A DNA stretch of 64,000 bases. It comes from an uncultured Thermoleophilia bacterium (GTDB lineage Bacteria; Actinomycetota; Thermoleophilia; UBA2241). Position 1 is the stretch's first letter. Each line of letters begins with the position of its first letter. A program made the translations under genes and the position numbers. The stretch spans positions 22,443 through 86,442 of the forward strand of contig CAVPIV010000001.1 of the NCBI GenBank assembly GCA_963705085.1, written 5' to 3'. The notes under the pieces are model-generated. The model was not told the origin of the DNA and made no database searches. It saw only the letters and a list, made by a program, of their open reading frames with translations. Of the stretch, positions 2,761 to 50,785 are shown piece by piece.

Positions 2761-4009
2761 TCAGTCCCGCAGCAACCGCCCGAAGTAGTCCAGGTAGGCC
2801 GTCGCTCCCCGCTGGAGGGCGTCGGGCTCGAGGATGAGGCTCGCCGTGAAGAACGCCTCGCGTTCCATGTCGAAGAAGTACCCGGGCTGGCTCCAGAGGC
2901 CCTCCTCCCGCAGAAGCCCGAGGGCCAACTCCTCTTCGGACTGGAGCCGCGGCGACTCGATGATCGCCGTCCAGCCGCCGTGGCAGGTGAGTACGCGATG
3001 GGGCGAGTCGTCTTCCTCCAGGATGAGGCGGAGCCGGGCGATGTTCTCTCTCAGCCTCCGCCGGCAACGCTCCGCGAAGTCTGTCGCTGAGGGCAGCAGC
3101 GTGGGCAGGGCGTTCATGATGGGCGTCCCCGCCGAGAGATAGGCGTCGGCGATGATCTCGAGCCGGTCTTCGGCTTCACGGAGTTCACGCTCCGGGCCCG
3201 ACGAGACGATCCAGCCGAGCTTCATCTGCGGCAGCCCGAGGCGCTTTGAGAGCCCGTCGAGGGCGAAGCAGAGGGTTCGGCCTTCGCCGATGAAGGAGCG
3301 ACGCACCGGCGATCGGCCGCCGGCGGCCGGTGGCGCTTCGCCGAGCTCGACCGGGAAGTCGTAGAAGACCTCGTCGGCGATGATGCGCGCAGCCGTACCG
3401 GACGCAGAGATCGACGAGGGCCTCGCGCTCTGCGTCACCCACGTATGAGCCTGTCGGGTTGCCGGGATTGATGACGACGAGGGCGCGGGCTCGTCCCCGT
3501 GTCAGCGCCGCTTCGACGGAATCGAGATCGATACGCCAGCCGGCGGGATGAGCGTACGCCAGGCGATACGGGCGCGTCTCCACCCCTTCGAGGCCCGCGA
3601 GATACTCGAAGAGCGGGTAGCCGGGACTGGGCGCGACGATCGCCTCGCCCGGGTCGCAGAGCAGCTTGAAGAGCCAGCCATAGGCCTCGGAGGTCGACGC
3701 GCAGAGAAACACGTCGCGGGCGTCGACCGGCGACGCGTGACGTGGTTCTCGGCTCGCGCGAACGGCGCAGTCCTCGACGATCGCGTCCCTGGCGCGCCGC
3801 AGGCCCCGCGGGTCGGGCTCGTAGCGCACGTTCGCCGGGTCGGCGAGCAGGCTGAGCGCATGCTGCGCGGGGCCGAGTCCTACCAGCGTCGGGTTGCTCT
3901 CGGAGAAGTCGAGCACGGGGACGCCGCCGGCCCGCAGGTCCGCGCGCAGCTTCGCCAGGGCGTTGTCCGCCGCGGGCCAGGTCAGCCTGGCGGAGAAGGG
4001 GATGCGCAT
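2761..4009 (-). pseudogene. Class I/II PLP-dependent aminotransferase (AlaC-like), reading frame broken by a +/-1 shift near 3400-3430. Either a sequencing indel or a true frameshift.
   Basis: N part (ORF 3185-4009): MRIPFSARL...SESNPT...NPGNPTGSYV...REALVDLCVRYG. C part (ORF 2761-3438) resumes in another frame at ...ARIIADEVFYDF...CFALDGLSKRLGLPQMKLGWI (SxSK / PLP-Lys region). Confidence 0.6.
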
Positions 4010-4077
4010 GAGCTTACACTAGGGCGCCGGACGCCTGCCGGGCAAGCACGGCGCGGCCGGCCTCCCGACGCAGATCG

Positions 4078-5148
4078 CTACTTCTGCGACGCGTGACCCA
4101 GCACGGTGAGCAGGGTGTTGAGCACCAGTGCGTCGGGGCGTACCCAGGCGTGGTAGTACGCCCAGTTGGCGCGCATCATCGACAGGCGCAGGTCGGCGTC
4201 GCTCAGGAGCCGGTCAACCGCGGGGATGAACTCGTCGACGGTCTCGAAGTCCAGGTAGTTGACGCCGGCCGAGAAGCCGCCGGGCATGGTCGCCGCCAAA
4301 CGGCTGGTGACGATCGCCCGCGAGGCCGCGACGTACTCGGCCATCTTCCAGCCGATGGCGCCGTGGAGACCCGTGGTGGCGACGCACACGGCCGCGTCTC
4401 GCGCCCGCTGCAGCACCTCGACCGTCTGCCGTCCCTCGCCTTCTGGTACAAGGCAATCGCCGTACTCGCGCCGGGCGAAATCGGTCGCCGCGAAGCCGCC
4501 GTAGAATCGCGAGCCGAACTCCCGGCGTGCCGCACGGATGCAGTCGGCCCGCATGCCGTTCACCTTCAGGCGGTCCTCGACCGTGTAGTCGCTCGACGAC
4601 GCATCCCACGGCCAAGCCTTGGTCATGAACAGAGCTGTGGGCCTGGTGCAGGGAATCGGCAGCCACTCATAGTCTCGGATGTCGAGGATGCGATGGTCGG
4701 TGAAGCCGGCGTGACGGGTCACGACGCTGGTGCTCCGTACCAGAGCCTCGGACAAGCGGCGGGCGTGCAAGGGGCGGGTGCCCCAGTGCCACGAGTTGTG
4801 TTTGCTCGTGACCACGTAGTTGAGGCCGAGCGGCCACAGGCTCACGGTAGTCGGCCAAAGGTCGGCGCGTGATGGATCGAGACTGCGCTTGAAGTAGTGG
4901 TCGATGCTTGGCAGCTCTTCCTTGATCTCGTCTGGGGGGTTTGGGCCATCGTGCTCGTCGTAGACGACCCGCTGGCCGTTGACCAATGCGCGGACGACGA
5001 GACTGTCCTCTTCCGGCCCAGGATATCTGTGCATCTTCAGCGCGATGACGTCTGCGGCGGCCAGCTCGCAGAAGCCGGTCACGATCTGTTCGATGTGGAG
5101 GCTGTTGCCAGCAATGACGAGCTCACAGCTCGTGTCTCTGGAATTCAT
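4078..5148 (-). CDS. Hypothetical protein, CgeB/DUF3880-like glycosyltransferase-associated C-terminal domain
   Basis: 356-aa ORF with balanced composition; C-terminal VCVATTGLHGAIGWKMAEYVAASRAIVTS...YYHAWVRPD resembles CgeB-type glycosyltransferase-like proteins. Confidence 0.6.
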   Translation of the reverse strand: MNSRDTSCELVIAGNSLHIEQIVTGFCELAAADVIALKMHRYPGPEEDSLVVRALVNGQRVVYDEHDGPNPPDEIKEELPSIDHYFKRSLDPSRADLWPTTVSLWPLGLNYVVTSKHNSWHWGTRPLHARRLSEALVRSTSVVTRHAGFTDHRILDIRDYEWLPIPCTRPTALFMTKAWPWDASSSDYTVEDRLKVNGMRADCIRAARREFGSRFYGGFAATDFARREYGDCLVPEGEGRQTVEVLQRARDAAVCVATTGLHGAIGWKMAEYVAASRAIVTSRLAATMPGGFSAGVNYLDFETVDEFIPAVDRLLSDADLRLSMMRANWAYYHAWVRPDALVLNTLLTVLGHASQK

Positions 5149-5393
5149 GTGGGCATTCTATGGGCCGGCGGGACCGCGGACAAACGCAGCTCGCGTGAGA
5201 ACGACCCAGCTCGGGAGAGCCGTCACGGCGGGGCTCAATCGTTCGAATGGTCGCGCCGATACTGTGATAGCGTGTCGGCCCCGATGGCCGGCAGCGGGAC
5301 ACGTGTGCGGCCGCGGTGAGGAGGTGGCGGGTTCCTCCTCTGAGGGTCCTGCGGCCTGCTCGTGCAGGCCTATCTGTGAGCGGGAGGATGCAC

Positions 5394-6167
5394 ATGAAGG
5401 TGGTCATCTTGGCCGGTGGCCGCGGCACGCGCCTTGCGGAGGAGACGACGGTCAAGCCCAAGCCACTCATCGAGATCGGCGGCCGGCCCATTCTGTGGCA
5501 CATCATGAGCATCTATGGGGCCTATGGCCACGACGACTTCATAGTCTGCCTCGGATACATGGGACACCTCATCAAGGAGTACTTCGCCAACTACGCCCTA
5601 CGTAGTTGCGACGTCACCTTCGACCTGGCGAAGGGCAGCACCGAGATCAACGGTTGCCCACGTGAGCCGTGGCGTGTCTCGTGCATCGACACGGGTGGAG
5701 ACACCATGACGGGCGGCCGCATCAAGCGCGTCGCAAGTGCCATCTCTCAAGGCACGTTCATGCTCACCTACGGCGACGGCGTCGCGGACGTCGACATCAC
5801 GCGGCTCCTCGAGTTCCATCGCTCCCACGGCAAGTTGGCGACGGTCACGGCCGTTCGCCCGTTGGGCCGTTTCGGGGCTCTCTGGCTTGACGGCGACATG
5901 CGCCGCGTGCGCGCGTTCGAAGAGAAGCCAGAGGGTGACCGTTCCTGGGTGAGCGGCGGCTTCTTCGTGCTCGAGCCGGGCGTGCTCGACTACATCGAGG
6001 GCGACGACACGTACTTCGAGCGCGAGCCCCTGGAGCGTCTGGCGAGCGAGGGGGAACTCATGGCCTACCGACACCCCTCGTTCTGGCACCCAATGGACAC
6101 CGTCCGCGACAAGGAAGCCCTCGAGCAGCTCTGGGAGACCGGCACGCCACCCTGGAAGATGTGGTGA
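5394..6167 (+). CDS. rfbF: Glucose-1-phosphate cytidylyltransferase
   Basis: MKVVILAGGRGTRL...KPLIEIGGRPILWHIM...GGFFVLEP matches RfbF/DdhA; GGGAGG SD 6 nt upstream of ATG 5394. Confidence 0.9.
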   Translation: MKVVILAGGRGTRLAEETTVKPKPLIEIGGRPILWHIMSIYGAYGHDDFIVCLGYMGHLIKEYFANYALRSCDVTFDLAKGSTEINGCPREPWRVSCIDTGGDTMTGGRIKRVASAISQGTFMLTYGDGVADVDITRLLEFHRSHGKLATVTAVRPLGRFGALWLDGDMRRVRAFEEKPEGDRSWVSGGFFVLEPGVLDYIEGDDTYFEREPLERLASEGELMAYRHPSFWHPMDTVRDKEALEQLWETGTPPWKMW

Positions 6168-7378
6168 GCGATGCTGACTCTCGAGGCGATCGCCATTGCG
6201 CTGCCAGGCGTCCCGGCCCCGGCGAACCGTCGGAGCGACGCTTGACCGCATGCGCCCGGACATCAACGGCCGCCGAGGTCGTGCGCGGCGACCTGGAGCA
6301 CATCGCGCTCGCCCTGGGCGACGCCCGGGAGTCGCTGGCCGGGCGCCGCGTGCTCATCACGGGGGGCGCCGGGTTCCTCGGCTACTACCTGGTGCAGTCG
6401 TTGCTCCACCTCAACGAGCGCCCGGCCAGGAGTGGTCCGCCCATCTCCGTGACCGTCTGGGACAACTTCGTCCGAGGAGTACCGGCATGGCTGGAGAGGA
6501 CGGCCGCGTCACCGCAGATGACCGTCTTGAAGCACGACGCGACCAGCCCTCTGCCGACAGGCATGCCCGAGTTCGACTACATCGTGCACGCCGCCTCCAT
6601 TGCCTCGCCGACCTACTACCGGCGGCACCCCCTGGAGACCATGGACGCGAACGTCGATGGGCTGCGGCGGCTCCTGGATCACGCGCGCGGGCGCCAGGAA
6701 GCGGGGGCGCCGCTACTCGGCTTCCTCTTCTTCTCGACGAGCGAGATCTACGGCGACCCCGGCCCCGAGCACATACCGACCCCCGAGACGTACCGGGGCT
6801 ACGTCTCGTGCACGGGCCCGAGGGCGTGCTACGACGAGTCCAAGCGCTACGGCGAGACGCTGTGCGCGACGTTCGCGCATCAGTTCGGCGTGCCGGTCAG
6901 CATGGCGCGCCCGTTCAACAACTACGGCCCCGGCCTCAAGATCACGGACGGCCGCGTCATCCCCGACTTCGCCCGCGACATCCTCGCGGGGCGCGACATC
7001 GTCATGCATTCCGACGGCTCGCCGGCGCGCACGTTCTGTTACGTGGCCGATGCCGTTGCCGGCTACTACCGCATCCTCACACGGGGGCGCCCGGGCGAGC
7101 CGTACAACATCGGCACGTCCGGCCCCGAGATCACTGTCGCCGAGCTCGCAGATGCCATGGTCGGGATTGGCCGCGAGCTGTTCGGCTACCAGGGCAGCGT
7201 CGTCGTGCGGCCGAGTCGGGACGGTGCGTACCTCACCGACAACCCGGCGCGCCGCTGCCCCGACATCACGAAGGCGCGCACCGAGCTCGGCTACGAGCCC
7301 TCGGTGGAGTTTCGTGAGGGCTTGCGGCGGACGCTCATTTGGTACTCGGCCAATCAGAACGAAGGGGATGAGGCGTGA
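6161..7378 (+). CDS. NAD-dependent epimerase/dehydratase, UDP-glucuronate decarboxylase (UXS)-like SDR. Start may be GTG 6161 (coupled to the rfbF stop) or GTG about 6276.
   Basis: [37 protein letters not shown]...[10 protein letters not shown]...DGRVIPDF are UXS/ArnA-like extended-SDR motifs; its stop overlaps the next gene's start (GTGA). Confidence 0.85.
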
Positions 7379-8714
7379 GACTGTCTGTCGTGGGCACTGG
7401 CTATGTTGGACTCGTGACGGGCGCCTGCCTCGCGGAGAAGGGCCACACGGTGATCTGCGTCGACCTCGACCCCGCGAAGGTGGACGCTCATCAACGCCGG
7501 GCGTGCCACCCATCCACGAGGAGGGTCTGGCCGGTATCCTCGAACGCACGGTGCCCGACAGGCTGAGGGCGACGACCGACCTGGCGGAAGCTGTGTCGAG
7601 CACGGACATCACGTTGATCGCCGTGGGCACGCCGTTCGACGGGGAGCAGATCGATCTCGCCGCGCTCCGGCAGGCGACCACGGCCATCGGAGACGTCCTG
7701 CGGGGCAAGCCGGACTACCACGTGGTCGTGGTGAAGAGCACCGTCGTGCCCGGGACCACCGACCAGGTCGTTGTTCCGCTGCTCGAAGAGAGATCCGGCA
7801 GGGCCGCCGGCGAGGAGTTCGGCGTGGGCATGAACCCGGAGTTCCTGCGCGAAGGGCAGGCGGTCGCAGACTTCATGAATCCCGACCGCATCGTGCTCGG
7901 CGCCGACGACCCCCGGGTCCTCGATGCCTGCTCGGAGTTGTACGCGGCGTTTCCCTCGGCGTCCGTCGTCCACACCACGACGCGCACCGCCGAGATGATC
8001 AAGTACACGTCGAATGCCCTGCTCGCGTCCCTCATCTCATTCTCAAACGACATCGCCAACCTCTGCAGCGCAGTGGGCGGCGTCGACGCTTGCGACGTCA
8101 TGGCCGGCGTCAAGCTCGACCGCCGGCTCAGTCCCATGGCGGGGGATGGCTCACGTATCAGCCCCGGGGTGCTCGACTACCTTGACCCCGGTTGTGGCTT
8201 CGGCGGCAGCTGCTTCCCCAAGGACGTCCAGGCGCTGACGGCGTTCGCGGAGAGGCGAGGCTCGCCGCTCCGGCTCCTCGAGCAGGTCCTCGCCGTCAAC
8301 GACGCGCAGCCCTTCAAGATGATCGACTTGCTGCGGCGACACTTCGACACGCTCCTCGGCGTGCGGGTCGCTGTGCTCGGGCTCGCCTTCAAGCCGGACA
8401 CCGACGACCTGCGCAGCTCTCCGGCGCTGCCCATCGTGGACCACTTGCTGCACGCCGGCGCCGTCGTCAAGGCGTATGACCCTATCGTGCGGGATGAGGA
8501 TATCGCCCGGCTGGAGTGGGCAGAGGTCACGCGGTGCACTACTCTCTCGGACGCGGTCGCGGACGCCGACGCCGTACTCCTTGTGACACGCTGGGGCGAG
8601 TTCGCGACGCTGCCTGATCTGCTCCGCCAGCTCGCAGTCGAGCCCCTGATCGTCGACGGCCGGCGTATGCTCGCCGCCGATTCGGTGGCCCGCTACGAAG
8701 GGATCGGACGATGA
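7375..8714 (+). CDS. NDP-sugar dehydrogenase (UDP-glucose/GDP-mannose dehydrogenase family); frame disrupted about 7480-7520
   Basis: ORF 7375-7566 gives the Rossmann N-terminus [38 protein letters not shown]. The rest continues in another frame: [12 protein letters not shown]...[13 protein letters not shown]...NPEFLREG...[11 protein letters not shown]...[17 protein letters not shown] is visible in the third frame, suggesting two nearby indels. Confidence 0.7.
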
Positions 8715-10021
8715 CGCCGCAGCAGCTCAAGGCCGAGATCCTCGAGTTGGTGAAGCGCTACTACGAGGAGGCGCACGCGCGACCGCGCTTCGTGCCCGGC
8801 AAGACGAGGGTCACGTACGCCGGGCGCGTGTACGACGAGCGCGAGCTTGTCAGCCTTGTCGACTCCTCGCTCGACTTTTGGCTCACCGCGGGGCCGTATG
8901 CCGCCGAGCTCGAGGCTCGGCTCCGGCGTCTGTTTGCGGCGGAGCGGGCTCTGCTCGTCAACTCGGGCTCCTCCGCGAACCTGATCATGGTCTCGGCGCT
9001 TCGTTCGGCGCAGCTCGACGGGGCCCTCGAACCCGGGGACGAGGTCATCACCCCGTCGGTGACCTTCCCCACGACGCTCACGCCCATCCTGCAGAACCAG
9101 CTCGTGCCGGTGTTCGTCGATTGCCAGATCGGTACCTACAACATCGATCCGGCCCGCATCGAGGATGCCATCGGCCCGCGCACGCGGGCGATCCTCGTCC
9201 CGCACACGCTCGGCAACCCCTGCGACCTCTCGACGATCATGGCGGTCGCCGAGCGCCACGACCTGATCGTCCTCGAGGACGCCTGCGACGCCTTCGGCGC
9301 CACCTACGACGGCCGCCCCGTCGGTACGTTCGGCGCTATGGCGTCGCTGAGCTTCTATCCCGCGCATCAGATGACCATGGGCGAGGGCGGAGGCGTGGTG
9401 GTTAACGATCAGCGCTTCGCGCGCATCGCGATGTCCCTGCGTGACTGGGGCCGCGACTGCTGGTGCGAGCCGGGCCACAATGACACGTGCGGCCAGCGCT
9501 TCTCCGGGTGCCACGGCGACCTGCCCATCGGCTACGACCACAAGTACGTCTACTCGAACCTCGGCTACAACCTCAAGGTCACCGACATGCAGGCGGCGAT
9601 CGGTCTCGCGCAGCTCGACAAGCTCGAGAGCTTCGTGGCCGCGAGACGGGCGAACTTCGCGTACTACTACGAGCGTCTCCAGCCCCTGGCAGACCGCATC
9701 GTGCTCCCGGTCTGGGACGCCGCGTCCGAGCCGTCGTGGTTCGGGTTCCCGATCACGGCCGCCGACGCGGGCGCGGCGCAGGCGCTCGTCGAGCGCCTGG
9801 AGCGTGCCCTGATCGAGACACGCAAGGTCTTCGCCGGCAACATCTTGCGGCAGCCGGGCTTCCTCGGTATTCCGCATCGCGTCCACGACACTCTCAAGAA
9901 CGCTGACGAGATCATGAAGCGCACCTTCTTCGTCGGCGTGTATCCAGGGCTCACGACAGACATGCGGGAGTACGTCGCCGAGACGATTCTGGGCTTCTAC
10001 GGCATTAGTCCCTCAGAGTGA
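8711..10021 (+). CDS. rfbH: CDP-6-deoxy-D-xylo-4-hexulose-3-dehydrase (E1)-like PMP-dependent dehydratase, DegT/DnrJ/EryC1 family
   Basis: Near-collinear with Salmonella/Yersinia RfbH/DdhC. FYPAHQMTMGEGG has His in place of the PLP Lys. RDWGRDCWCEPGHNDTC plus EDACDAFG keep the C-X57-C-X1-C-X7-C [2Fe-2S] pattern. ATGA overlap with the upstream gene. Confidence 0.9.
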   Translation: MTPQQLKAEILELVKRYYEEAHARPRFVPGKTRVTYAGRVYDERELVSLVDSSLDFWLTAGPYAAELEARLRRLFAAERALLVNSGSSANLIMVSALRSAQLDGALEPGDEVITPSVTFPTTLTPILQNQLVPVFVDCQIGTYNIDPARIEDAIGPRTRAILVPHTLGNPCDLSTIMAVAERHDLIVLEDACDAFGATYDGRPVGTFGAMASLSFYPAHQMTMGEGGGVVVNDQRFARIAMSLRDWGRDCWCEPGHNDTCGQRFSGCHGDLPIGYDHKYVYSNLGYNLKVTDMQAAIGLAQLDKLESFVAARRANFAYYYERLQPLADRIVLPVWDAASEPSWFGFPITAADAGAAQALVERLERALIETRKVFAGNILRQPGFLGIPHRVHDTLKNADEIMKRTFFVGVYPGLTTDMREYVAETILGFYGISPSE

Positions 10022-10501
10022 GACGCGGTTGTCTCGCGAGACCGGGCCGAAAGCCTGCGTTGGCGCGCTGTAGTTCGTGCCAGAGGTCGGTGGCGTGCGC
10101 CAGAGAGCCCTGATCATAGCCCGGACAGCGGGCAGGAACGCAGGAACGGTCAAACGGGACTGTCCGCGGAGTCATCGGGTATGAATGCTGAGAAGAATAC
10201 GTCGCTTGACACACATGCGACGCCCCGGGGCGTGAAGCCGGGATGCGTCGGCCGAGGTGCCGCACTCGCTGCAGTGTGACACGGGGCCACTGGTGAGATG
10301 CCCGCGCGCCGGCGCTTGCGCCTCTGGGGCGGTCGCAGGGAGGAGGCGCCTGTGGCGCAGCAGACTCGGAGGTGCTTGCCGCAGTCTTGGGGCAAGCACC
10401 TCCATCCGCGAGACTCGGTACCGCCCGCGGCGTGAGTGTCACCAGTTGGCCTGTCGCGCGCTTGCGCTTGGACGGTGTCGAAGGTGAGAGGGGGTGGCAG
10501 G

Positions 10502-10852
10502 ATGAGCCACACCATCGCGCATAGGCCCTGGTCCCCTGGGCACGTCCCGTGGGCGCCGATTCTGGCGGTGCTCGCCGTTGTCGTGATCGCGGCGGTGGTG
10601 CTGGTGGTCGCCAACTGGCCGACCACCACAACGACGCCGCCGGCGACCACTGCCGGCGTCGCAGGCACCGAGCCAGCTGCCGTGTCGCCGGCGGTGATGG
10701 TCGGCGATCGGGCGGCGGCGCTGACCTACTACAAACGCAACTACAGCCCCAACGCGGAGTTCGTCCCGGCCGTGGTGGGGGTCGTCAGCCCGTACCCCAA
10801 GCTGCCGCCTGCGCTGTACCAGTACAAGCGCACCCATAGCCCGACGTACTAG
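10502..10852 (+). CDS. Hypothetical single-pass membrane protein with a Thr/Pro-rich linker
   Basis: GAGAGGGGG SD before ATG 10502; one TM helix (ILAVLAVVVIAAVVLVVA). Confidence 0.5.
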   Translation: MSHTIAHRPWSPGHVPWAPILAVLAVVVIAAVVLVVANWPTTTTTPPATTAGVAGTEPAAVSPAVMVGDRAAALTYYKRNYSPNAEFVPAVVGVVSPYPKLPPALYQYKRTHSPTY

Positions 10853-13971: not shown

Positions 13972-14607
13972 ATGAAGATAGCCATCATCGGCCACGGCAA
14001 CGTCGGAGGCGCGCTGGCTGACCGTCTCCAACGCCTCGGGCACGACGTCACGGTGGCAACGAACCACAGGGAGTCGGACAGCTTGGCGAGACTCCTGGCG
14101 AAGAATGCCGACGTTCGGGTCGCCGCGCCCGACGAGGCCGCGGGGTCTGCCGACGTCGTCGTACTCGCCACGCCCTTCCGCGTGGCCGGAGACGTACTCG
14201 AGCCGCTCGCGGCGTCGCTGGTCGGCAAGATCCTCATCGACTGTACCAACCCCGTTGGACCGGGCGTCACTCACGGACTGGGCGACGGGCGGTCGGGGAC
14301 GGAGGCGATCCAGGCACTGGTGCCCGGGGCGCACGTCGTGAAGGCGTTCAACACCTACGGGTACGAGAACCTCGAGGACTCCCGGTATCCGGACTACAAC
14401 GTCCGGCCCGTCATGATGCTCTGCGGCGCCGACCGGGATGCCAAGCGGGTCGTCGCCCTCCTCGCTGAGCAGCTCGGTTGGCGGCCGCTGGATGTCGGCG
14501 GGATCGAGCAGGCCCTGCATCTGGAGCACATGACGCTGCTGTGGGTACGCATGGTGCGCGTGGATGGTCACTCGCCCCACATGGTGTGGGCCATGCTGGA
14601 GCGCTGA
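13972..14607 (+). CDS. NADP oxidoreductase, coenzyme F420-dependent family (Npd-like)
   Basis: MKIAIIGHGNVGGALA Rossmann N-terminus; strong SD GGGAGAAAGGA. Confidence 0.8.
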   Translation: MKIAIIGHGNVGGALADRLQRLGHDVTVATNHRESDSLARLLAKNADVRVAAPDEAAGSADVVVLATPFRVAGDVLEPLAASLVGKILIDCTNPVGPGVTHGLGDGRSGTEAIQALVPGAHVVKAFNTYGYENLEDSRYPDYNVRPVMMLCGADRDAKRVVALLAEQLGWRPLDVGGIEQALHLEHMTLLWVRMVRVDGHSPHMVWAMLER

Positions 14608-14611
14608 GGCC

Positions 14612-15442
14612 ATGAACGCGAGCGTCCCGGAGGCAACGGTCCGCCTGCGGACCGGGGCGCGCCTCCCCCGTGTCGGGCTCGGCGTGTTCCGCGCCCCGCC
14701 GGGCGAGGTCACGCGCCAGGCCGTGCTCGCGGCCCTGGAGGCCGGCTACCGGCACATCGACACGGCGAGCGCGTACGGGAACGAGCAGGACGTCGGCGAG
14801 GCGCTGCGGCGCAGCGGCGTTCCGCGTTCCGAGATCTTCGTGACGACGAAGCTGTGGAACTCGGACCAGGGCTACGATGCGGCGCTGCGGGCCTTCGAAG
14901 GAAGCCTGACGAGGCTAGGTCTCCCCTCCGTGGATCTCTACCTGATCCACTGGCCGGTCCCGGGCCTGCGGCGGGATTCGTGGCGCGCGCTGGAGGCCCT
15001 CTACGCGGAGCAGCGGGCTCACGCCATCGGAGTGAGCAACTTCATGGTGCCGCACCTCGACGAACTTGCGGCCGAGGCTCGAGTACTGCCGGCGGTCAAC
15101 CAGATCGAGGTGAGCCCGTTCCTGCAGCAGCGCGACGTGCGGGCGTGGTGCGCGGCGCACGACGTCGTGGTTGAGGCCTACAGCCCTCTCACCAAGGGCG
15201 CCCGTCTCGCCGATCCGGTGGTTGTCGATGTGGCGCGCCGGGTTGGGAGGACTCCGGCGCAAGCCCTGCTTCGGTGGGGTCTGCAGCATGGCCTTGTGGT
15301 GCTGCCGAAGTCCGTCCACGCGGAGCGGATCCGCGAGAACGCCGACCTGTTCGACTTCGCGCTGGACGCGGAGAGCATGGCACGCCTGGACGCGCTCGAG
15401 GAGGGCCTGGCCACCGGCTGGGATCCCCGTGGCTGGCGCTAG
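14612..15442 (+). CDS. Aldo/keto reductase (2,5-diketo-D-gluconate reductase-like)
   Basis: GLGVF...GYRHIDTASAYGNE...IFVTTKLWN...IHWP...VSNF motifs. Confidence 0.9.
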   Translation: MNASVPEATVRLRTGARLPRVGLGVFRAPPGEVTRQAVLAALEAGYRHIDTASAYGNEQDVGEALRRSGVPRSEIFVTTKLWNSDQGYDAALRAFEGSLTRLGLPSVDLYLIHWPVPGLRRDSWRALEALYAEQRAHAIGVSNFMVPHLDELAAEARVLPAVNQIEVSPFLQQRDVRAWCAAHDVVVEAYSPLTKGARLADPVVVDVARRVGRTPAQALLRWGLQHGLVVLPKSVHAERIRENADLFDFALDAESMARLDALEEGLATGWDPRGWR

Positions 15443-47873: not shown

Positions 47874-50642
47874 TCAGCCGGCTGCCTCGCAGGCAACGCA
47901 GCGTGCCGTGCCGGCCGCCGCCGCTTCCCCTTCGGCCGGCGGCTCCTTGTCCACCCGCACCGCACAGACCTTGAACTCCGCCGTCTTGGTGACAGGGTCG
48001 CCGGCCGAGTTGGTGAGCTCGTTGACCGGTGACTCCTTGTAGTGGAGCGTCATGAACATCGTGCCGGTGGGCACGCGGTCAGTAACACTGACCCGCGTGC
48101 GGATCGAACCGCGCCGCGAGGTGACGCGCACCATCTCGCCGTCGGCGACGCCGAGGCGCCGCGCGTCGGCCGGGCTGAGCTCGGCCAGCTCATGCGGGCG
48201 CAGCCACTCGAGGTTCTCGCAGTGCCGAGTCATCACGTTGTGGTGGTAGAGCATCCGTCCGGTCGTGAGGAGCAGCGGGTACTCCTCGTCGGTGAGCTCG
48301 GCGGGCTCCTGGAACGGGATACCCTGCAGGAGCCCCTTGCCGCGCGTGAACTTGCCCTTGTGCAGGTACTGGGTGCCCGGATGATCCTCGGTCGGGCAGG
48401 GCCACTGCAGCCCGACCGTCCCGAGACGCTCGTACGTCATGCCGGCGTACTGTGGGATGACGGTGCGCATCTCCTCGAAGACCTCCTCGGGACTCGTGAA
48501 CGGCATCGGGTAGCCGAGACGGGTAGCGAGGTCGAGGATGATCTGCCAGTCCTCACGGCACTGGCCTGGGGGCTCAACGGCCTTGCGGACACGTTGTACG
48601 CGACGTTCAGTGTTGGTGAAGGTGCCGTCCTTCTCCGCGTAGCAGGAGGACGGCAGGAAGACGTCGGCGTACTTGGCCGTCTCGGACATGAGCATGTTCT
48701 GGCAGACGAGGAAGTCGAGGCTCTCCATCGCCTTGCGCACGTGGTTGGCGTCGGCGTCGGTGAGCACGGGGTCCTCACCCATGATGAACATGGCCTTGAG
48801 GTCGCCAGCTACTGCGGCGTCGAACATCTCCGGTATGCGCAGGCCGATCTTCTCGGGCATGGACACGCCGTAGGCGGCCGAGAACCTGGCCTTGGCCGCC
48901 TCGTCCAGCACGCTCGGGTACCCCGGGAACGAGTTGGGGAGGGCGCCTACGTCGCACGAACCTTGCACGTTGTTCTGGCCGCGTAGCGGGTTGATGCCGG
49001 CGAACTCGATGCCGATGTGGCCGGTGATCATGGCCAGGTTGGCGAGGTTCATGACGTTGGCAGTACCGACGGTGTGTTCCGTGATGCCAAGCGTGTAGAA
49101 GATGCCCGCCCGCCGCGTCGTGGCGTAGAGCTCGGCCGCCGCGACAATCGTCGCGGCGGGCACGCCCGTGATCGCCGCGGCCTTCTCGGCGGTGAAGTCC
49201 TTGATCGTCTCCCAGAGGTCGTCGAACCCCTCGCAGCGCTCCTCGATGTAGGCCACGTCGTGCCAGCCGTTGCTGATGATCGTGTGGAGGATGCCGTCGA
49301 TGAGCGCGTTGTCGGTGCCTGCCTTGAGGCGCAGCCAGAGGTGGGAGTGCTCCGCCAGCTCGGTGCGTCGCGGGTCGGCGACGATGAGCTTGGCGCCGTT
49401 CTGTGCGGCGCGCTTCATCTTGTTGCCGATGATCGGGTGCGCCTCGGTGGCGTTGGATCCGATGATGAAGAGGACGTCGTTGTGCTCGATCTCGCCGATG
49501 GAGTTGCTCATGGCGCCTGAACCCAGTGTGGCGGCCAGACCGGCCACCGTTGGCGCGTGTCAGGTGCGGGCGCAGTGATCGATGCTGTTCGTGTTCAGGC
49601 CCGCCCGCGTGAGGCGCTGGAGCAGGTAGTTCTCCTCGTTCGTGCAGCGGGCCGAGCCGAGCACGCCGATCGCCATGGCGGAGTGCTTCTCCTTGATGGC
49701 GAGCAGCCGCTCGGCGATCAGGTCAAGAGCTTCGTCCCACGAAGCCTCCTCGAAGACCCCGTCACGCTTGATCAGGGGCGTCGTGATGCGGTCGGGGCTG
49801 GTGATGACGTCGGTGTGGAACCGGCCCTTGACGCACAGGGAGCCCTGGTTGACCGGGGCGTCGTAGGCGGCGGTGACGCCGACCACCTTGCCGTCGGCGA
49901 CGTTCAGGTCGAAGTTGCAGCCGACGCCACAGAAGGGGCAGGTGGTGCGCACTTTGCTGCGGTCCCACGTGCGGGTGCCCTTGAGCTGCTTGTTGATGAT
50001 GGCCCCGCTCGGGCAGATGTCAATGCACTGGCCGCAGAAGCGGCAGAACGAAATGTCGAGCGGGCGGTCGAAGGGTCCGGCCACCAAGGAGTCGAAACCA
50101 CGTCGGGTGACGCCGATGGCATCGGTGACCTGCACCTCGTGGCAGACACGGACGCATTTGCCGCAGAGGATGCACTTGTTCATGTCGCGCTCGATCATCG
50201 GGTTCTCGGACTCGATGGGGAGCGCCTGCCTTAGGGCGGGGAAGCTGCTGCCCTTGACGCCGTACCGGTAGCAGGTGTCCTGCAAGGCGCAGGCGCCAGC
50301 CTGCTCGCAGGTCAAGCAATCAAGGGGGTGATCGGCGAGGAGTAGATCGAGGATCATGCGGCGGGTCGAGACGACGGCCTCCGACTCGGTCTCGATGACC
50401 ATGCCGTCGTGGAGCGGGGTACTGCAGGACGCGACGAGATCGCGACGGCCCTCGACCTCGACGACGCACAGCCGGCAGGCGGCGACGGGGCGCAGGGTCT
50501 CATCGTGACAGAGTGTCGGGATATCGATCCCCAGGTCGCGGGCCGCCTCGAGGATGGTGGTGCCGAGGGGCACGTGGACGACGTGCCCGTCGATCCTTGC
50601 ATGGACAGTCGCGAGGACCTCCTCGTCTGACGTGCCGGTCAT
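47874..50642 (-). CDS. fdhF: Formate dehydrogenase alpha subunit, selenocysteine-containing (N-terminal 2Fe-2S/4Fe-4S domains plus Mo-bisPGD domain). The in-frame TGA at 49560-49562 (plus coordinates) encodes Sec.
   Basis: ORFs 49560-50717 and 47874-49547 are one frame: ...[30 protein letters not shown] aligns with E. coli FdhF ...CCARV-U-HGPSVAGLHQSVGNGAMSNA. Start at ATG 50642 with GGAAGGGAG SD. Confidence 0.9.
49520..49559 (-). other. Bacterial SECIS-like stem-loop immediately 3' of the UGA
   Basis: mRNA: UGA-CACGCGCCAAC (11 nt) then GGUGGCC-GGUCU-GGCCGCC. Spacing, GGU stem start and GGUCU apical loop mirror the E. coli fdhF SECIS. Confidence 0.6.
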
Positions 50643-50785
50643 GCCGCTCCCTTCCGTGGCTGCTCCTGAGCGCGAGAGCCGCTGGTTCTCGCGCTGAAAG
50701 GAGGAGTGAGTGTACACCGTGCGCGGCGAGGTGAATAGGTCTGCCCCGCTCCGGTATCCCCGGAGAGCCGGCGAGAGGCCATCTT

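Follow-up and report, generated by a model that had tools for sequence, protein, structure and literature searches.

A gene cassette with a predicted decarboxylative route to a CDP-linked 3-deoxy sugar in an uncultured Thermoleophilia bacterium

Introduction

How would a sugar 3-dehydrase of the E1 (RfbH) type obtain its 4-keto substrate from a gene cassette that has no cytidine diphosphate (CDP)-glucose 4,6-dehydratase? The question is raised by a 64-kb stretch of DNA from an uncultured Thermoleophilia bacterium (the window, about 70% G+C). Its sugar cassette has RfbF and E1 in common with the CDP-3,6-dideoxyhexose pathway of Salmonella and Yersinia (RfbF/DdhA, RfbG/DdhB, RfbH/E1/DdhC, and RfbI/E3/DdhD), however, it contains neither RfbG nor E3. 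Instead of RfbG it has a nucleotide-sugar C6 dehydrogenase and a short-chain dehydrogenase/reductase (SDR) of the extended type that resembles the decarboxylase UXS, the uridine diphosphate (UDP)-xylose synthase. A preliminary description of the window had offered two explanations, a 4,6-dehydratase of different ancestry or a modified, possibly uronic or decarboxylated sugar, and our analysis disfavors the former and favors the latter in its decarboxylated form.

We lean toward a single linear pathway, read from the gene content, in which the 4-keto substrate of E1 would be reached by C6 oxidation and decarboxylation in place of 4,6-dehydration. The product would probably be a CDP-linked 3-deoxy sugar with five carbons, as opposed to the six carbons of the Salmonella and Yersinia products. 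We favor a decarboxylated sugar because the SDR keeps Ser119, Glu120, and Arg277 of the UXS active site, because its gene is coupled to that of the dehydrogenase, and because the dehydrogenase/SDR pair and RfbG exclude one another beside E1.

Results

The cassette consists of the following features, with coordinates in the window.

5394-6167, + strand: rfbF, glucose-1-phosphate cytidylyltransferase, 257 aa, intact (TIGR02623; Salmonella RfbF)
6171-6245, + strand: remnant (stub) of a family 2 glycosyltransferase (GT2) gene, 24 codons (comparison with L168; match to GT2 N-termini)
6242-7378, + strand: UXS-like extended SDR, predicted nucleoside diphosphate (NDP)-glucuronate 4-oxidase/decarboxylase, 378 aa, intact (2B69; active-site residues)
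7375-8714, + strand: nucleotide-sugar 6-dehydrogenase of the UDPG/MGDP dehydrogenase family, with a frameshift in the sequence at hand (445 aa after removal of two bases)
7489-7505, + strand: two single-base insertions, C at 7489 and G at 7505, which interrupt the reading frame of the dehydrogenase (orthologs in L002, L003, and L168)
8711-10021, + strand: E1/RfbH, an NDP-4-keto-sugar 3-dehydrase dependent on pyridoxamine 5′-phosphate (PMP) and a [2Fe-2S] cluster, 436 aa, intact (NF011936; 3BCX)

Here L-numbers (L001, L168, and so on) designate loci of related genomes or contigs, for which 10 kb on either side was inspected per genome. The four sugar-nucleotide genes lie on the + strand where the preliminary description had placed them. 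It had also reported three overlaps, of which GTGA (7375-7378) and ATGA (8711-8714) are present, while the third, GTGGTGA at the rfbF/SDR junction, is probably not real. The 4-nt overlaps that join the SDR, dehydrogenase, and E1 genes are common to the window, L003, and L168, and translational coupling of the SDR to the dehydrogenase recurs in dozens of genomes. The closest relatives of the cassette are those of L168 (82% nucleotide identity), L169, L002, and L003. Scanning 4900-10600 for promoters and terminators gave no signal over the shuffled background.

The window RfbF matches TIGR02623 end to end with 390 bits (cutoff 300) and is 59% identical to Salmonella RfbF. A GGGAGG sequence at 5382-5387 lies 6 nt 5′ of its ATG, and an identical protein of 257 aa is on record. 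It had been allowed that rfbF might encode a generic nucleoside triphosphate transferase, however, TIGR02623 is a cytidylyltransferase equivalog, and the RfbFs of the window, L008, and L034 all pass this model for cytidine triphosphate (CTP)-specific enzymes (390-458 bits). The SDR/dehydrogenase pairs closest to that of the window (L005, L006 at 14323-15093, L007, L012, L014, L015, L017, and L023) are accompanied by RfbF-like proteins of a divergent subfamily, which share 33-39% identity with the window protein. For the members in L006, L007, L012, and L014, the match to TIGR02623 spans the model and reaches 210-250 bits, short of the cutoff of 300. Each RfbF-like gene examined near a pair either passes TIGR02623 or has it as the sole model matched end to end, at a score below the cutoff.

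The best solved relative of the SDR is human UXS1 (2B69, E = 2e-52), with RmlB at only 1e-22. In human UXS1 the SDR triad is Thr118/Tyr147/Lys151, and Ser119, Glu120, and Arg277 set the decarboxylase group apart and are lacking in epimerases (PMC3438964). The window SDR keeps all six of these active-site residues (T118, S119, E120, Y147, K151, and R277) in an alignment to 2B69 that also brings together the motifs GGAGFLG, STSE, YDESK, and RRCPD, and the active-site positions are invariant across 26 family members. The SDR passes none of the NCBIfam equivalogs: it reaches 39.6 bits on the CDP-glucose 4,6-dehydratase model TIGR02622 (cutoff 278), and 113 bits on the deoxythymidine diphosphate (dTDP)-glucose 4,6-dehydratase model (cutoff 365); the ArnA and Ralstonia models give it only 42-79 bits. 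We predict that it is an NDP-glucuronate decarboxylase of the UXS/ArnA type.

Members of the SDR family are 369-385 aa long and have a conserved N-terminal extension of about 35 residues. For the window protein, comparison with L168 points to TTG 6242 as the most likely start; it would give 378 aa, has GGAG 6 nt upstream, and is the counterpart of GTG 2293 in L168. We rejected starts at 6161 or 6164, within GTGGTGA, as TTG 6242 fits the length and position in L168, and it is further favored because the GT2 remnant occupies the interval after rfbF. The UXS-like identity assigned to the SDR in the preliminary description stands, while its start and its junction with rfbF probably have to be revised.

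When the two extra bases are removed, the 445-aa dehydrogenase matches PF03721, PF00984, and PF03720 and passes TIGR03026, the generic nucleotide-sugar dehydrogenase model, with 411 bits. It falls short of both UDP-glucose dehydrogenase equivalogs, AglM (453, cutoff 670) and TuaD (366, cutoff 700). The catalytic-cysteine motif GGSCFPKD aligns with that of the UDP-glucose dehydrogenase BceC. Among structures in the PDB, its best match to a UDP-glucose dehydrogenase has E = 4e-86 and its match to guanosine diphosphate (GDP)-mannose dehydrogenase 1.5e-75.

E1 scores 615 bits on NF011936 (RfbH, cutoff 423), is 48% identical to Salmonella RfbH, and aligns over its full length with the Yersinia E1 structure 3BCX (E = 1e-134), ahead of ColD (1e-58) and ArnB (1e-37). 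It groups with E1 and not with ColD or the aminotransferases, which had been raised as the alternative placement. Alignment likewise bears out the E1 hallmarks noted earlier: His219, in FYPAHQMTMGEGG, replaces the pyridoxal phosphate lysine and aligns with Yersinia His220, and Cys192, Cys250, Cys252, and Cys260 form the cluster pattern C-X57-C-X1-C-X7-C. Across 90 aligned E1 sequences His219 and Cys250/252/260 are invariant, and the position of Cys192 is a cysteine in 86. Two other cysteines vary with genomic setting. Cys138 (~9122-9124) occurs in 14/16 E1s that are associated with a dehydrogenase/SDR pair as compared with 22/90 of all aligned sequences, most others having Val, and Cys171 (~9221-9223) occurs in 11/16 and 19/90, respectively, most others having Phe. 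Both might have to do with a smaller substrate or with the surroundings of the cluster.

The missing E3 reductase had been taken as a departure from the canonical pathway. We found no tblastn match to Salmonella RfbI in the 64-kb window, no plant-type ferredoxin motif (C-x4-C-x2-C-x20-40-C) in its six frames, and, again by tblastn, no RfbI/E3 homolog in the 88 environmental E1 loci of our census. Since no surveyed E1 locus has RfbI, the absence is ordinary and not diagnostic. Thus E3 is indeed missing from the window, however, its absence was given more significance than it deserves, since such absence is the norm in the surveyed E1 loci and has a precedent in SpnQ, an Fe-S 3-dehydrase that runs on general ferredoxin/flavodoxin reductases without a dedicated E3 (PMC8987622).

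The recurrence of this gene combination was assessed in two surveys. In survey A, one genome per species was searched with an alignment of the SDR family, and RfbF was sought within 10 kb. The SDR adjoins the dehydrogenase in 51 species-level genomes from phyla that include Chloroflexota, Cyanobacteriota, Bacteroidota, Bacillota, Acidobacteriota, Nitrospirota, Patescibacteria, and several proteobacterial classes. An RfbF-family gene lies within 10 kb of the pair in 37/51 and is directly adjacent in 23/51, and RfbG was found within 10 kb in 0/51. Cultured carriers of the triad of RfbF, dehydrogenase, and SDR are Paenibacillus phyllosphaerae CECT 5862 (L047), Halalkalibacter nanhaiisediminis (L069), Lutispora thermophila DSM 19022 (L049), and Bacillus massiliigorillae (L046), among others. 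A DegT-like gene is present at seven of these loci and E1 at four; the three DegT-like genes that we examined, in L029, L045, and L054, are ArnB/PseC-like sugar 4-aminotransferases that flank the triad of RfbF, dehydrogenase, and SDR.

In survey B, metagenome contigs were searched with the window E1, and all loci whose E1 shares 45% identity or more were pooled. Of the 88 E1 loci, the dehydrogenase/UXS-like pair accompanies E1 at 17 and RfbG or an RfbG-like gene does so at 40, with none having both; in the pooled set five have neither (Fisher p = 3.6e-11 for the exclusion). Most of the 17 pair loci with enough flanking sequence also carry RfbF. We conclude that the gene combination is not accidental. 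For the window itself, tblastn with Azospirillum and Salmonella RfbG recovered only the UXS-like SDR, at 27% identity, and no RfbG ortholog was found within 10 kb on either side of the cassette loci checked; the earlier statement that RfbG and RfbI are absent holds across all 64 kb. In a neighbor-joining tree, 14/16 pair-associated E1s fall in one clade and two lie outside it.

Two features of other E1 loci are recorded here. An RfbG-like SDR occurs in many environmental loci that have rfbF and E1; it is only 30-36% identical to Salmonella or Azospirillum RfbG and presumably represents a second lineage of CDP-glucose 4,6-dehydratase (L095, L111, L113, L117, L119, L127, L130-L132, L138, L139, L143, L145, L146, L151, and L160). 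Several lineages have a second SDR after E1, which may be a 4-ketoreductase. In L073 (12362-17075, a deltaproteobacterial metagenome-assembled genome), E1 is followed by a 372-aa protein of unknown kind, another SDR, and a thiamine pyrophosphate (TPP) enzyme of the acetolactate-synthase type, the last lying two genes downstream of E1. YerE of yersiniose biosynthesis is a member of the same TPP enzyme family, and the gene order resembles the YerE/YerF branching steps of yersiniose, which by analogy suggests a branched 3-deoxy-pentose.

The window copy of the cassette differs from its closest relatives in two respects. First, a GT2 gene encoding 309-322 aa lies between rfbF and the SDR in L002, L003, L168, and L169. 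Bases 1323-2305 of L168 (~0.98 kb, with the GT2 gene at 1325-2284) are replaced in the window by 80 nt (6175-6254). Only 74 nt separate rfbF from the SDR, and these hold the GT2 remnant, a 24-codon stub whose start agrees with the N-termini of GT2 proteins, for example MLTEHIEGGLLPGV in L169. This comparison indicates that the loss of GT2 is a genuine deletion of ~0.9 kb.

Second, the dehydrogenase frame is broken. The frame of 7375 covers codons 1-38, among them the GxGxxG loop, and that of 7506 covers the other ~400 codons. The window reads AKVDA, then C (7489), INAGR, G (7505), and PPIHEEGL, where intact orthologs have AKVxAINAxxPPIxExGL; the same stretch is AKVEAINARRPPIHEQGL in L003, AKVGAINAGQPPIFEDGL in L002, and AKVECINAGLAPIHEEGL in L168, and in all three the dehydrogenase is an intact single open reading frame (ORF) of 445 aa. 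The family assigned to this gene in the preliminary description is correct, however, the gene is not the single intact ORF it was taken for. Programmed frameshifting was considered and rejected, as two separate +1 shifts within 16 nt of each other would be necessary and each ortholog consists of one plain ORF. A third single-base insertion, an extra C near 3385, splits the class I/II aminotransferase gene upstream of the cassette (2761-4009, − strand); the break falls between LCVRYGCA and IIADEVFYDF, in a protein of the tyrosine/nicotianamine type.

We think it rather probable that the window holds a decaying locus, with its dehydrogenase frameshifted and its GT2 deleted, as opposed to an assembly error, and the cassette copy, as it reads, is probably non-functional. 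Some observations weigh on the other side. The three single-base insertions could be assembly errors, in which case the copy would be functional and the absence of GT2 its only real difference, an outcome that we hold to be the less probable of the two but quite conceivable. The sequence derives from an uncultured genome, and in two of the three insertions (7489 and ~3385) the extra base is a C directly before ATC, which could reflect a systematic error. After the shift the dehydrogenase has no internal stops, and, with the two bases removed, its ratio of nonsynonymous to synonymous substitution rates (dN/dS) against L168 is 0.22, close to the 0.12-0.21 of intact neighbors. This closeness means that the break is either recent or an assembly artefact. 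Against an artefact, all three insertions lie inside 2.7-7.5 kb, beside the genuine deletion, and outside homopolymer runs. About 30 other window genes that we examined have full-length domain matches, and the sole other apparent break is most likely a selenocysteine codon, described at the end of the text.

Discussion

The route that we favor starts with RfbF, whose family is assigned and which would convert CTP and glucose-1-phosphate to CDP-glucose. The dehydrogenase, of the UDP-glucose dehydrogenase family, would then oxidize C6 to give CDP-glucuronate, and the UXS-like SDR would oxidize C4 and decarboxylate to give a CDP-4-keto-pentose, which corresponds to CDP-4-keto-6-deoxyglucose minus the C6 methyl group. 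This step assumes release of at least part of the product, as with ArnA. E1, with PMP and its [2Fe-2S] cluster, would remove the 3-hydroxyl to leave CDP-3-deoxy-4-keto-pentose, which is analogous to the 3,6-dideoxyhexose intermediate but lacks its C6, using electrons from a general ferredoxin/flavodoxin reductase with no dedicated E3. In the closest relatives the GT2 of the cassette presumably transfers the finished sugar, while elsewhere the enzyme that follows E1 is a second SDR or resembles the TPP enzyme YerE. In the window this pathway would have been recently inactivated by the dehydrogenase frameshift and the GT2 deletion. A released 4-keto product is suggested because enzymes that require one, E1 or 4-aminotransferases, repeatedly adjoin the triad and because a TPP enzyme of the acetolactate-synthase type comes after E1 in L073, and CDP is suggested as the carrier because of the RfbF-family gene near the pair in 37/51 genomes.

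Several points weigh against this route. UXS normally keeps the 4-keto intermediate bound and reduces it to xylose (PMC3438964), so that release here is an assumption, and whether the dehydrogenase and SDR are specific for UDP or CDP sugars is not readable from their sequences. RfbF is lacking within 10 kb of 14/51 pairs, although several of these are on short contigs, and L001 carries the pair alone; pairs without RfbF mean that the substrate may be a UDP sugar. The E1s of L089, L093, and L095 fall inside the clade of pair-associated E1s and adjoin RfbG-like genes, so E1 sequence alone is no marker of a changed substrate. It is also possible that genomes with the cassette carry rfbG elsewhere, beyond the 10 kb inspected on each side.

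An alternative explanation has two branches that serve one glycan, in which the dehydrogenase and SDR would convert UDP-glucose to UDP-xylose while RfbF and E1, together with a 4,6-dehydratase encoded elsewhere, would make a CDP-3,6-dideoxyhexose. The SDR is nearest to UDP-xylose synthase, its relatives are named UDP-glucuronate decarboxylase in public annotations, some loci in addition to L001 have the pair without RfbF, and our view is limited to 10 kb on each side of a locus. We nonetheless regard two branches as unlikely. RfbG stands beside E1 in 40 loci and in 0/17 of those with the pair; in survey A, where RfbF is found with 37/51 pairs, RfbG with none, and E1 with four, nothing else that would use the CDP-glucose is in sight under a two-branch scheme. 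Moreover, the dehydrogenase is below both UDP-glucose dehydrogenase cutoffs, its best UDP-glucose dehydrogenase match (4e-86) is only moderately ahead of that to GDP-mannose dehydrogenase (1.5e-75), and the SDR, dehydrogenase, and E1 genes are translationally coupled.

The same chemistry could alternatively take place on UDP or on a mixture of nucleotides, with the RfbF-like proteins being promiscuous or serving another purpose. This fits the nearest characterized relatives of the SDR and dehydrogenase, which use UDP sugars, as well as the divergent RfbF-like subfamily found near many pairs, with its scores of 210-250 bits against the TIGR02623 cutoff of 300. It accounts poorly for the RfbFs of the window, L008, and L034, which pass the CTP-specific equivalog at 390-458 bits, and for the adjacency of a dedicated transferase, as UDP-glucose is a housekeeping metabolite for which none would be necessary. 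CDP sugars are also the substrates of the best characterized relatives of E1. We consider a UDP or mixed carrier improbable, to about the same degree as the two-branch scheme.

Very unlikely, in our estimation, is that the SDR is a CDP-glucose 4,6-dehydratase of other ancestry in an ordinary 3,6-dideoxyhexose pathway, with the dehydrogenase acting on another sugar: the SDR does match Pfam GDP_Man_Dehyd, GDP-mannose 4,6-dehydratases have an STSE motif too, and RfbG is missing from the window, however, the SDR keeps the UXS-group-specific Ser119, Glu120, and Arg277, its UXS1 match is ~30 orders of magnitude better than that to any 4,6-dehydratase, and its constant coupling to a C6 dehydrogenase would be left unexplained.

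Returning to C6 oxidation and decarboxylation on CDP, we propose more tentatively, and with less confidence than for the linear route itself, that the triad of RfbF, UDP-glucose-dehydrogenase-like enzyme, and UXS-like SDR, present in at least 37 species-level genomes across the phyla and proteobacterial classes named above, represents an unrecognized CDP-based metabolism of uronates and pentoses. From its CDP-4-keto-pentose, aminotransferases might form CDP-4-amino-pentoses, E1 might form 3-deoxy-pentoses, as in the cassette described here, or YerE-like enzymes might form branched pentoses. Searches of the full-text literature found no natural pathway through CDP-glucuronate, CDP-xylose, a CDP-pentose, or a CDP-4-keto-pentose; the only "CDP-Xyl" that they returned is a synthetic substrate analogue, and the only "CDP-arabinose" is a speculation on the glycosylation of phage DNA.

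The proposed logic most resembles that of the Arn-type system (Ugd/ArnA/ArnB), in which an NDP-glucose 6-dehydrogenase and an oxidative decarboxylase of the SDR family lead to an NDP-4-keto-pentose that passes to a DegT-fold enzyme with action at C4; sister loci of the cassette use ArnB/PseC-like aminotransferases, as the Arn system does. The cassette differs from Arn in the predicted CDP carrier made by RfbF, in having a 3-dehydrase and not an aminotransferase, and in the lack of a formyltransferase domain. The likeness is one of reaction logic only, with no ArnB, ArnA formyltransferase domain, ArnC, or ArnT among the window ORFs scanned. Compared with human and bacterial UXS, the cassette SDR shares the six active-site residues and adds the N-terminal extension and the linkage to RfbF. 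The neighboring E1 and aminotransferase genes imply that its 4-keto intermediate would be released, unlike in UXS, where it is reduced to xylose.

Deoxy- and aminopentoses are also made in the CalS8/CalS9/CalS13 branch of calicheamicin biosynthesis, by a dehydrogenase, a decarboxylase, and a DegT-fold aminotransferase on TDP or UDP carriers. CalS8 (4XR9, E = 1.4e-42) and CalS13 (4ZAS, E = 1e-27) are distant matches to cassette proteins, identified by their PDB names only. On the E1 side, SpnQ, the TDP-4-keto-2,6-dideoxyglucose 3-dehydrase, and ColD have the same fold, and SpnQ has an Fe-S cluster and no dedicated E3. A Streptomyces plasmid homologue, annotated rfbH and located in a dTDP-sugar cluster, is 50% identical to the window E1. 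A review of sugar 3-dehydrases lists three substrate classes, all of them 6-deoxyhexoses (PMC8987622). These are carried on CDP, GDP, or dTDP, and a pentose would be a fourth class.

If our reading is correct, an E1/RfbH gene is not always the sign of a 3,6-dideoxyhexose such as abequose or tyvelose, and many proteins annotated automatically as UDP-glucuronate decarboxylase or UDP-glucose dehydrogenase may use CDP sugars. Production of CDP-glucuronate and CDP-pentoses, a 3-deoxypentose among them, would extend over bacteria of many phyla and would add a new class of carrier for uronic acids and pentoses as well as the fourth substrate class for sugar 3-dehydrases. The cassette would then exemplify a swap in the route to a 4-keto sugar, from 4,6-dehydration to oxidation and decarboxylation, with the downstream enzyme of radical deoxygenation kept.

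Other observations

The context of the cassette had been described as actinobacteria-like, which agrees with a window HutH that is 84% identical to proteins of Thermoleophilia metagenome-assembled genomes. The 2-kb bin 4001-6000, in which the cassette begins and its upstream neighbor lies, has the lowest G+C of the window (0.655 as compared with ~0.70), and low G+C together with the spread of the genes across phyla is compatible with horizontal acquisition.

The case for a surface-glycan locus is thin, coming down to one family 4 glycosyltransferase (GT4) at the window edge and one sub-threshold glycosyltransferase-like gene, and the neighbors are not conserved with the cassette. The gene at 4078-5148 that had been called CgeB-like has a Pfam match of only 19.7 bits, below the cutoff of 25. 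That at 2761-4009 does encode an aminotransferase, however, it is of class I/II (Aminotran_1_2), not a sugar aminotransferase, and is frameshifted. The cassette neighbors (4078-5148, the GT4, a DUF4352 protein, a cupin, and 10436-10849) have no homolog in any related locus, which places them outside the system and leaves the cassette alone as the conserved unit. The rest of the window has ordinary metabolic and transporter genes, and no further sugar genes among the ORFs scanned.

In the close relatives the conserved unit adds GT2, and in L002 and L003 also a downstream secreted protein. This protein, of about 1015 aa and located directly after E1 (L003:13766-16813 and L002:13830-16895), has RCC1-type repeats followed by C-terminal Ig-like repeats; it has no Pfam match on record and is absent from the window. 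An assignment of this large gene as an ArnT-like membrane transferase was rejected in favor of a secreted RCC1-repeat protein, which could be a target of glycosylation or could be unrelated.

The remaining apparent break in the window is in a molybdopterin oxidoreductase (47877-50717, − strand), where an in-frame TGA at 49560-49562, in the motif IDHCART-TGA-HAPTV, yields two apparent ORFs. It is most likely not an error but the selenocysteine codon of a formate dehydrogenase alpha subunit.

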